Notes under the pieces: generated by a model
Told to the model about the DNA's origin: nothing
Databases searched by the model: none
What the model saw: the letters and a program-made list of their open reading frames with translations, nothing else
Translations under genes and position numbers: made by a program
Assembly (NCBI RefSeq): GCF_054482595.1
Contig: NZ_CM137008.1
Direction: 5' to 3' (one strand)
DNA: 64,000 nt
In this document: positions 16,584-17,490 of the stretch, in pieces
Layout of the letters: each line of letters opens with the position of its first letter
Position numbering within the stretch: the first letter of the stretch is position 1

Positions 16584-16844
16584 TTATTTATAGAAAATCA
16601 CAGTGGCGTGGATATAATTTTTACCGGAGAAAGAACTGATGTAGTAATTGCTGGCTTGTAACTCTTCCGCTTTCTCTTTGATTTGGCTTTCAACGCCCGC
16701 TGGGTTGCTATTGTGTGTAGACATGCTCACTTTTGATAACTGTTCAAGATTATTGTCCGGTTTGTGTATCTCGGTTGCTGCAAATGCATGTCCTGTGAGA
16801 GTGCAAAGAAATAACGCGGTAAATAAATTTTGCTTAATAGACAT
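16584..16844 (-). CDS. small secreted DUF1471 (YdgH/BhsA/McbA-like) protein
   Basis: 86 aa; signal peptide MSIKQNLFTALFLCTLTGHAFA; C-terminal YYISSFSGKNYIHATVIFYK resembles DUF1471 signature. Confidence 0.6.
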   Translation of the reverse strand: MSIKQNLFTALFLCTLTGHAFAATEIHKPDNNLEQLSKVSMSTHNSNPAGVESQIKEKAEELQASNYYISSFSGKNYIHATVIFYK

Positions 16845-16860
16845 AATAACTCCTTTTATA

Positions 16861-17490
16861 TTAAACGTAATGATTAAATACTTGTGTAATAAGATCAGGG
16901 ATTTGCGCTAATGCATTTTGCTCGGCGAGTTCGCGTCCCGGTTGGGTTTTGTCGACACCTTCTGCACGTAAAATATGTGTATTGGTAATGCCCATTAATT
17001 TCAGCGTGGCTTGCAGATAACTTTCCTGATGATCCAGCGCCAGATGTGCTTCATCGCAATAGATACCGCCGCGCGTCGAGACAATAAACGTCGGTTTATC
17101 CTTCAGTAACCCAACGGCGCCTGCAGAGCTAAAACGAAACGTTAAACCAGCCTGACACACCTGATCTATCCAGGTTTTGAGGCCAGATGAAACGCTGTGA
17201 TTAATCATCGGCGCGCCAATAATGAGCACATCGCACGATGCCAGTTCATCAATAGCGGCGTGGATATCATTCACCTCCTGCTGAATTTGTGCGTTCTTGC
17301 ACTCTGCTTTATCGCAAAGCGCCAGAAAGGTTTCTTCACGCAAATGGGGCGGCGGCGTCAGGCCAACGTCGCGATGAATAATTGTGGCTTGAGGAAAGTG
17401 TTGGCAAAGCGCTTCTACCAGCGTCTGGCTTAATTTCCGCGAACTTGAATGCTTAAGCATTGGGCTACTGTCGATATGAAGAATTTTCAT
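16861..17490 (-). CDS. FMN-dependent NAD(P)H azoreductase/quinone reductase-like flavoprotein (flavodoxin-like fold)
   Basis: 209 aa; motifs GAPMINHSVSS, LTFRFSSAGAVG, VSTRGG parallel AzoR-family motifs; 16 bp upstream of DUF1471 gene. Confidence 0.78.
   Translation of the reverse strand: MKILHIDSSPMLKHSSSRKLSQTLVEALCQHFPQATIIHRDVGLTPPPHLREETFLALCDKAECKNAQIQQEVNDIHAAIDELASCDVLIIGAPMINHSVSSGLKTWIDQVCQAGLTFRFSSAGAVGLLKDKPTFIVSTRGGIYCDEAHLALDHQESYLQATLKLMGITNTHILRAEGVDKTQPGRELAEQNALAQIPDLITQVFNHYV

Follow-up and report, generated by a model that had tools for sequence, protein, structure and literature searches.

A secreted DUF1471 protein gene paired with a NOX-like gene in an accessory LysR-linked module of Escherichia coli and related enterobacteria

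Why does a gene for a small secreted DUF1471 protein lie between the genes of two flavoenzymes? The question arose from a 64,000-nucleotide stretch of DNA (hereafter the window) from contig NZ_CM137008.1 of the NCBI RefSeq assembly GCF_054482595.1. The window is from Escherichia coli, and its part 15100..18600 is 100% identical to the sequence of E. coli strain O157:H16 Santai. Here, four genes form a block that is flanked by rpiA (18543..19202, plus strand) and argP (14232..15125, minus strand). The first of the minus-strand genes is an AzoR-type Flavodoxin_2 gene (azoR-like; 16861..17490, 209 amino acids (aa)), followed by a YhcN-family DUF1471 gene for a secreted single-domain protein (16584..16844, 86 aa) and by a gene for a NOX-family flavocytochrome (NOX-like; 15196..16521, 441 aa). 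On the plus strand, a divergent open reading frame (ORF) of 298 aa, annotated in RefSeq, encodes a LysR-family regulator (17591..18487). The same AzoR, DUF1471, and NOX genes are already present in the RefSeq annotation of Santai.

The original prediction took the three minus-strand genes for one operon. It proposed that the DUF1471 protein is the periplasmic partner or substrate carrier of the flavocytochrome and that the AzoR-like enzyme supplies or recycles reduced flavin or quinone. In the present analysis, co-regulation by one LysR protein and a specific evolutionary tie of a DUF1471 subfamily to one NOX clade are well supported. With moderate confidence, I favor the reading of the block as an accessory redox-stress operon of Enterobacteriaceae that is horizontally mobile, is controlled by the LysR protein, and works by the mechanism proposed below.

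One regulator gene and three genes on one strand

The ORF coordinates first given for the DUF1471 gene and its two flavoenzyme neighbors proved exact, and the three genes follow one another on one strand with gaps of 16 nucleotides (nt) between azoR-like and DUF1471 and 62 nt between DUF1471 and NOX-like. What controls them? The 100-base-pair (bp) interval 17491..17590, read on the minus strand, is the divergent control region and the 5′ leader of the proposed operon. It contains the dyad ATTGTT-N10-AACAAT (17568..17589, strand-neutral), which is perfect and unique in the window, where 0.01 chance matches are expected. The dyad adjoins the lysR start, and about 88 nt separate its center from the azoR-like ATG downstream. 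The core of the dyad is invariant in seven diverged loci, Hafnia included, and its position would fit a LysR recognition site, for which it is the candidate. Moreover, the first ~70 nt of the control region are nearly identical between E. coli and Salmonella, whereas the flanking proteins are only ~70% identical. The LysR protein scores below every NCBIfam LysR equivalog cut-off, and its gene is co-inherited with the module at all related loci.

By a consensus scan, the minus strand of 17491..17590 has no sigma-70-like site, a lack that is presumably common among activator-dependent promoters. In the azoR-like leader there is also an inverted repeat, CTCTCAT-N7-ATGAGAG (17498..17518, minus strand), lying over the likely ribosome-binding site. 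This repeat is present in E. coli, near-identical in a more distant enterobacterial locus (L005, see below), and absent from Salmonella.

The spacer between azoR-like and DUF1471 (16845..16860, minus strand, 16 nt) contains AAAGGAG, a strong Shine-Dalgarno sequence for the DUF1471 gene; the equivalents in Salmonella and in two further lineages (G50 and L096, see below) are AAAGGAA and TAGGAG. In a consensus scan, neither gap showed a canonical terminator or, on the minus strand, a sigma-70-like promoter. However, the longer gap contains a hairpin (16544..16568, minus strand) with an 11-bp stem, a 3-nt loop, and a folding energy of −16.5 kcal/mol. Its z-score is −3.9, none of 200 shuffled sequences folded as well (0/200), and no U-tract follows it. 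Hairpins of unrelated sequence occupy the same position in all four lineages with a DUF1471 gene (E. coli, Salmonella, L096, and G50), while the modules lacking DUF1471 have no hairpin there. A repetitive extragenic palindromic (REP) sequence or another repeat was ruled out, as the window has no second copy of the hairpin and its sequence changes from lineage to lineage. It may act as a partial terminator or as a 3′ stabilizer of an azoR-DUF1471 transcript.

At the NOX-like gene, no recognizable Shine-Dalgarno sequence precedes the start, which lies within an A-rich tract. Judging from the sequences compared, the start region appears to be an A-run of variable length. Just 5′ of the start, within the tract, there is a three-codon mini-ORF (ATG AAA TAA; 16519..16535, minus strand). 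In L005, the tract is open, and the N-terminus of the NOX-like protein gains four residues (MKKK).

It is thus only in part that the operon claim held. The single strand, the short gaps lacking a promoter or canonical terminator, and the single divergent LysR gene with its dyad speak for it, and the strong hairpin after DUF1471 qualifies it. Co-transcription of azoR-like, DUF1471, and NOX-like is likely from this layout, with possible attenuation or transcript stabilization at the hairpin; partial termination before the NOX-like gene is possible. Since the DUF1471 gene has a strong Shine-Dalgarno sequence and a hairpin after it and the NOX-like start is weak, an excess of the DUF1471 and AzoR-like proteins over NOX is predicted. 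A predicted excess of DUF1471 would suit an accessory, modulating, or protective role.

Related loci, loss, and selection

Is the arrangement found elsewhere? Salmonella enterica (L003/L004) has the LysR gene and the complete azoR-DUF1471-NOX series at an unrelated site, once beside an integrase fragment. L005 has the full module between rpiA and argP. At a third site, L087/L090 have LysR and azoR-NOX with neither DUF1471 nor the hairpin. L096/L097, at another site, have LysR, DUF1471-NOX, and an 8-codon azoR remnant. Enterobacteriaceae bacterium G50 (L093-L095) has, between rpiA and argP, LysR, DUF1471, and a NOX gene that has lost its membrane half. Finally, Hafnia (L091/L092) has LysR and azoR with a small AraC-like gene and no NOX, again at another site.

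Between Salmonella and E. coli, protein identity is 71% for LysR, 71% for AzoR, 51% for NOX, and 38% for DUF1471. L005 (region 833-7298) was rejected as a member of Escherichia, since its serA, rpiA, and argP flanks are just 83-85% identical to those of E. coli in nucleotide sequence, with 1.2-1.5 synonymous substitutions per site (dS). The four module genes are 90-93% identical (dS 0.2-0.46). The module is closer than its flanks and must hence have passed horizontally between E. coli and a more distant enterobacterium, without a change of syntenic site.

Two lineages keep traces of losses. In L096, the azoR remnant ATG CAA ATC CTA GAT ATT GAC AGC TAA (MQILDIDS and a stop) is spaced normally from the LysR dyad (L096:3779-4000). 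Thus, azoR was deleted from a module that retained DUF1471-NOX. In G50, NOX is dead, and a U-tract makes the hairpin 3′ of DUF1471 a canonical terminator (L094:3827-5277). A 69%-identical AzoR copy stands alone about 270 kb off, near an integrase (L089:4001-4636).

In summary, four diverged lineages have DUF1471 next to NOX, and the module occurs at no fewer than three chromosomal sites. In neighbor-joining trees, the module-linked NOX proteins form one clade, with a congruent LysR tree. The simplest history would start from an ancestral LysR, azoR-DUF1471-NOX module, from which DUF1471 was then lost once and azoR twice. The expectation that the three genes are co-conserved was borne out by their joint presence in E. 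coli, by the Salmonella module, and by DUF1471-NOX in four lineages; it failed for L087/L090, which have azoR-NOX without DUF1471.

As a negative control, genome contigs were scanned with a profile built on the NOX alignment, and 80 loci (species representatives) were listed, with distant NOX homologues at 33-43% identity, mostly from Betaproteobacteria. A DUF1471 or AzoR-like neighbor was found in none of the 80 listed loci, and no module locus was among them. A related divergent LysR gene was found among them in Azonexus only. A distant NOX homologue of Pantoea also stands without AzoR, DUF1471, or LysR partners. Some E. coli strains have a second NOX paralogue (P0059, 38% identical; L088:5001-6308) beside IS66, with none of the module partners.

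Is this type of DUF1471 protein, in turn, found apart from NOX? A word-indexed homology search returned 13 matches, whose named sources are all E. coli. A profile search, exhaustive over 1.84 billion representative proteins, revealed the G50 and L096 lineages. Only 8 matches fell below 1e-10, and each was of the G50 type (P0282), of the L096 type (P0285), or an E. coli-type fragment. Among full-length matches, a YhcN orthologue (P0287) at its own argR-yhcN-yhcO locus came next. Among these representatives and the loci examined, the NOX-linked subfamily was seen only directly upstream of genes of the NOX clade, and every member that could be placed was in an Escherichia, Salmonella, or other enterobacterial context.

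One may object that no specific link exists. The DUF1471 gene would then be an independent stress gene with its own terminator hairpin, left between azoR-like and NOX-like by inertia, and either merely co-induced or the last gene of a two-gene azoR-DUF1471 transcript. The hairpin present in every DUF1471 lineage, canonical as a terminator in G50, suits this explanation, as do the GC content of DUF1471 (38.7%, the minimum of the block, compared with 47% for azoR-like, 44% for NOX-like, and 52-56% for the flanks), the module without DUF1471 in L087/L090, and the nature of its paralogues as general stress genes (PMC4092069). However, the DUF1471-NOX adjacency outlived the loss of azoR in L096 and moves to new sites, no promoter-like site for a separate NOX transcript was detected, and the subfamily was never seen elsewhere. 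Furthermore, the gene is maintained, with a ratio of nonsynonymous to synonymous substitution rates (dN/dS) of 0.06-0.08. I consider the absence of any link unlikely.

How common is the module in E. coli itself? In a survey of 5,426 complete E. coli genomes, in which a gene was counted at a coverage of at least 80%, DUF1471 was present in 233 genomes, NOX in 228, and the azoR-specific part in 241, with the three together in 229 (~229/5,426). All copies are chromosomal and at a single site, and the three genes are near-perfectly present or absent jointly. A few modules are decaying: NOX has an IS1 insertion in NZ_AP024687.1 and is cut to 53% in NZ_LR890334.1, and DUF1471 is cut to 36% in NZ_CM143886.1.

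Strain K-12 has a scar of the module (positions 2080..2205 of the K-12 locus L002). By blastn, K-12 lacks window positions 15179..18294 (strand-neutral) except for a 62-bp remnant of the azoR 3′ end, ~90% identical to 16887..16948; in place of 15179..16886, there are 65 unrelated bases. K-12 also keeps the part of the LysR gene that encodes the C-terminus. Thus, the gene annotated in K-12 as encoding a ‘LysR substrate-binding domain’ between argP and rpiA is what is left of the module, and I take it to be the yqfE pseudogene. Since about 3,900 of the 5,426 genomes keep the azoR remnant, the block is old at the argP-rpiA site and has mostly been lost.

Could the block in E. coli then be a remnant under decay that has no function today? 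It is gone from ~96% of complete E. coli genomes, with the scar in K-12 and an occasional IS1 insertion or truncation, as such a remnant would be. Yet its ORFs are intact in ~229 genomes, and other species have received it by horizontal transfer and retained it. In comparison with the 95.7%-identical RM14516 allele, the dN/dS values of the window genes are 0.10 for lysR, 0.12 for azoR, 0.06 for DUF1471, and 0.20 for NOX, and the overall range between alleles is 0.06-0.24. These low values indicate that all four genes are maintained by purifying selection where present. A functionless remnant is hardly credible.

The three products and a proposed mechanism

The identification of a secreted DUF1471 protein stood up. 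The protein matches Pfam PF07338 (YdgH_BhsA-like/DUF1471) at E 2.5e-9 over residues 34-86. DUF1471 proteins are about 90 aa long with an N-terminal Sec signal peptide (PMC4092069). In the window protein, sequence inspection showed hydrophobic residues 7-21, then AFA followed by AT, and no lipobox. The predicted signal peptide is residues 1-22 (16779..16844), cleaved after AFA to leave a mature domain of ~64 aa. An AlphaFold2 (AF2) model has a beta-alpha-beta-beta core with a predicted local distance difference test (pLDDT) score of 80-90 over the domain. Its top four Foldseek matches in the PDB are the solved DUF1471 domains 4evu, 2jna, 2ma8, and 2m2j (root-mean-square deviation 2.1-2.3 Å over 58-60 columns, probability 1.00, and E-values of just ~0.01-0.08). 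A PDB sequence search with the protein gave nothing at E <= 0.01.

Which DUF1471 protein is it? None of the named NCBIfam equivalog cut-offs was reached: BhsA 52.3 against 90, YhcN 38.5 against 125, YbiJ 28 against 110, RclB 27.5 against 100, and McbA 27.2 against 110. Among the named relatives, the E. coli copy is nearest to BhsA by NCBIfam score, and the Salmonella copy is nearest to YhcN, as the subfamily is in the profile search. In the alignment of the NOX-linked subfamily, AATEI stands at the mature N-terminus in three of the four lineages, N-P before the helix is invariant, and HAT lies near the C-terminus. The Gly ahead of strand 1, kept in most other aligned DUF1471 sequences, is replaced. 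A sequence check found no Cys and no cofactor, heme, metal, or flavin motif in the mature protein. Without Cys and a cofactor motif, DUF1471 cannot itself carry electrons; a redox or electron carrier was thereby ruled out, and the idea of a substrate carrier was abandoned on the same ground together with the lack of a metal motif.

The NOX-like protein has the Pfam domains Ferric_reduct, FAD_binding_8, and NAD_binding_1. As criteria for a bacterial NOX, I used those of Hajjar et al. 2017 (PMC5676040), namely sequence motifs, two bis-His pairs (His-X12-14-His) in separate transmembrane (TM) helices, and six such helices ahead of a C-terminal dehydrogenase domain. The motifs of the published filters are present as HPFTI (residue 265) and GIGITP (residue 327). 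The heme-ligand pairs H80/H94 and H164/H177 are invariant in 10 homologues, and so is the CGP motif. The spacing of these pairs presumably matches that of human NOX2. In an AF2 model (pLDDT 82.6), six long helices make up the N-terminal part, with the His pairs in helices 73-106 and 157-181, and an FNR-like domain comes after them, whereas a simple hydropathy scan gave just 4-5 segments. The best full-length fold match is SpNOX (8qt6; E 1.5e-24, TM-score 0.73/0.80), also the best PDB match by sequence. On this model, the product is a six-TM, two-heme NOX-family enzyme with a C-terminal FAD/NAD(P)H domain, and the motifs for FAD and NAD(P)H that it contains would make it self-sufficient in principle.

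Does the mature DUF1471 protein dock on the periplasmic face of this enzyme? It might be an obligate subunit, an adaptor, or an acceptor-presenting factor, by analogy with MsrP and MsrQ or with the small partner subunits of eukaryotic NOX/DUOX. DUF1471 lies immediately upstream of NOX in four diverged lineages at different chromosomal sites, and its subfamily was seen nowhere else. In addition, the outer heme of SpNOX is exposed, and a protein acceptor has been proposed for it (PMC11564096), while RclB/RclC (see below) offer a precedent. Against docking stand the lack of Cys and of any heme, metal, or flavin motif, the closely related NOX of L087/L090 with no DUF1471 gene, the strongly unequal predicted stoichiometry, and the fast divergence of the DUF1471 sequence, which would be unusual in an obligate subunit. 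I regard docking of this kind as rather unlikely, somewhat less so than the absence of any link. The narrower proposal of a dedicated periplasmic partner that binds the exposed outer-heme face and gates, tunes, or redirects the electron output is a shade more doubtful than docking in general.

The AzoR-like assignment was also confirmed. The protein matches Flavodoxin_2 (E 5e-41), and its closest PDB relatives are FMN-dependent NADH-azoreductases (4c0w at E 5e-30 and E. coli AzoR 1v4b at E 9e-21). RefSeq names it an azoreductase despite scores below the NCBIfam AzoR cut-offs (71.7 against 188, 52.5 against 143, and 44.2 against 432); the Salmonella, L090, and Hafnia copies are also below these cut-offs. 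The active-site stretch is GAPMINHS or GAPMFNHS in all module copies, where the usual AzoR consensus is, as I take it, PMYNF. Near the N-terminus, a Ser-rich loop aligns with its counterpart in ppAzoR 4c0w and probably binds FMN. By sequence, the product appears to be a homologue of the cytoplasmic AzoR-type FMN-dependent NAD(P)H quinone/azo reductases. AzoR-type enzymes are quinone reductases (PMC4051601).

Does the AzoR-like enzyme serve NOX? It could be a cytoplasmic regulatory or electron-feeding subunit, like KefF for KefC or Fre for MsrQ. This possibility is suggested by a flavodoxin-like gene directly before a membrane-protein gene, compare the kefF-kefC order, by weak KefF/KefG NCBIfam matches, by the KefF-KefC interaction noted in PMC4051601, and by the azoR-NOX pair conserved alone in L087/L090. 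However, NOX owns a complete dehydrogenase domain, Hafnia has LysR-azoR without NOX, DUF1471-NOX exists elsewhere without azoR (L096), and the G50 AzoR copy lies far from the NOX locus. The idea that AzoR supplies NOX with reduced flavin or quinone was accordingly given up, since the FAD/NAD(P)H domain of NOX is intact, and an obligatory electron donor was ruled out, as the genes also occur separately. A subunit role is very unlikely. The AzoR-like enzyme is likeliest to be co-regulated with NOX while mechanistically separable from it, as a parallel cytoplasmic detoxification arm of the regulon.

The mechanism proposed for the favored reading, a LysR-controlled accessory redox-stress operon, would run as follows. 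A signal, most plausibly an electrophile, quinone, or oxidant, would activate the LysR protein, which would then drive a single transcript of azoR-like, DUF1471, and NOX-like, in this order, with the products going to three compartments. In the cytoplasm, the AzoR-type FMN enzyme would carry out two-electron reduction of quinones or other electrophiles with NAD(P)H. NOX would move electrons from cytoplasmic NAD(P)H via FAD and two b-hemes to an acceptor on the periplasmic side, O2 or another. The secreted DUF1471 protein would be a non-redox periplasmic accessory of the NOX reaction; it may modulate or shield the exposed outer-heme face, or protect the envelope from the reaction product. Much more DUF1471 and AzoR-like protein than NOX would be made.

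Several points weigh against this reading. The module has been lost by most E. coli and is hence dispensable, and the L087/L090 lineage keeps azoR-NOX without DUF1471, which is hence not essential for NOX. Just about six independent lineages were seen. DUF1471 identity between lineages is just 36-47%, compared with 50-73% for its neighbors, and the DUF1471 tree, built from short sequences, did not robustly unite the Salmonella copy with the others. For these two reasons, the orthology of the NOX-linked DUF1471 proteins rests mainly on position. The single azoR-DUF1471-NOX transcript is a prediction; the hairpin 3′ of DUF1471, which has a U-tract in its G50 version, could stop most transcription ahead of NOX. 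The inducer and the acceptor in the proposed mechanism are guesses.

Two observations lie outside this argument. An Rfam scan of the locus gave one match only, sub-threshold, to the retroviral frameshift element eiav_FSE, inside NOX-like (15569..15595; 23.9 bits against a gathering threshold of 40), which is almost certainly due to chance. Downstream of serA, at ~20900..21430, there are two near-identical short repeats, each with a plus-strand ORF starting MKEKGYDATCHHTDCTVTHKF; the Santai annotation places two ibsC type I toxin genes in the matching stretch.

Relation to known systems and meaning

Which known system does the module resemble? The closest analogue in architecture appears to be rclABC with rclR, which confers resistance to reactive chlorine and HOSCN. 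Like the module, it has a divergent regulator, a cytoplasmic flavoenzyme, a periplasmic DUF1471 protein, and an inner-membrane protein. Only the DUF1471 component and the gene order correspond, the other parts being compared by family name. RclA is a disulfide-reductase-type flavoenzyme and RclR is AraC-type, whereas the module has an AzoR-type Flavodoxin_2 protein, a NOX-family heme enzyme, and a LysR protein instead. The E. coli and Salmonella DUF1471 proteins match the RclB model weakly (27.5 and 44.4 bits), below its cut-off of 100. RclC belongs to the DUF417 family (PMC12096828). RclB and the membrane protein RclC are Cys-free, give matching phenotypes, and are thought to act jointly by an unknown mechanism (PMC12096828).

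A second likeness is to MsrPQ. MsrP is an electron-accepting molybdoenzyme. MsrQ, a heme membrane protein with a ferric-reductase domain, is encoded beside the periplasmic MsrP, which acts at its outer face (PMC11564096). In both cases, the gene of a heme membrane protein adjoins that of a periplasmic protein. In contrast, DUF1471 has no cofactor motif, and MsrQ has no dehydrogenase domain while the NOX described here has one. With SpNOX, the NOX-like protein shares the motif filters and six TM helices, at ~22% identity in the structural alignment.

The named DUF1471 paralogues (YhcN, BhsA/YcfR, RclB, BsmA, YbiJ, McbA, and YahO) share with the protein the Pfam family, size, signal peptide, fold, and restriction to enterobacteria. 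The NOX-linked subfamily differs from them in scores far below the cut-offs, the replaced Gly, the invariant N-P, and a unique genomic context. With E. coli AzoR and the ppAzoR/paAzoR of Pseudomonas (type 1), the AzoR-like protein shares fold family and length, but it falls below the NCBIfam cut-offs, has the PMINHS/PMFNHS stretch, and is paired with LysR, as in Salmonella, L087/L090, and Hafnia.

Has the module been described before? An ‘EcNOX’ of E. coli KTE10 (UniProt L2VL28) is among the proteins that Hajjar et al. listed and cloned (PMC5676040), and it may be the NOX of the window. The word ‘operon’ is absent from the main text of PMC5676040 and of PMC11564096, and none of the papers searched has both ‘DUF1471’ and ‘ferric reductase’. 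The parts of the module are already annotated and of known kinds, while the recurrent pairing of DUF1471 with NOX in a LysR/AzoR module appears to be undescribed.

What does the pairing mean? Few small proteins of enterobacteria are induced by stress as strongly as those of the DUF1471 family, and a biochemical activity is known for none of the latter (PMC4092069, PMC12096828). For bacterial NOX enzymes, there are solved structures but neither a known physiological role nor a known acceptor; the acceptor in the cell may be other than O2, and the exposed outer heme suggests a possible protein acceptor or partner (PMC11564096). Here, such an enzyme is paired with a DUF1471 protein, in natural isolates of E. 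coli and Salmonella where the pair is genetically tractable, with K-12 as a ready null background. The single LysR gene and its conserved putative operator should aid in finding the inducing signal. If the link is one of co-regulation only, the module is an ordinary accessory stress operon. If DUF1471 is a dedicated partner of NOX, a DUF1471 protein would have a biochemical role for the first time, a bacterial NOX would have its first physiological partner, and the pair may, by analogy, hint at how RclB works with RclC.

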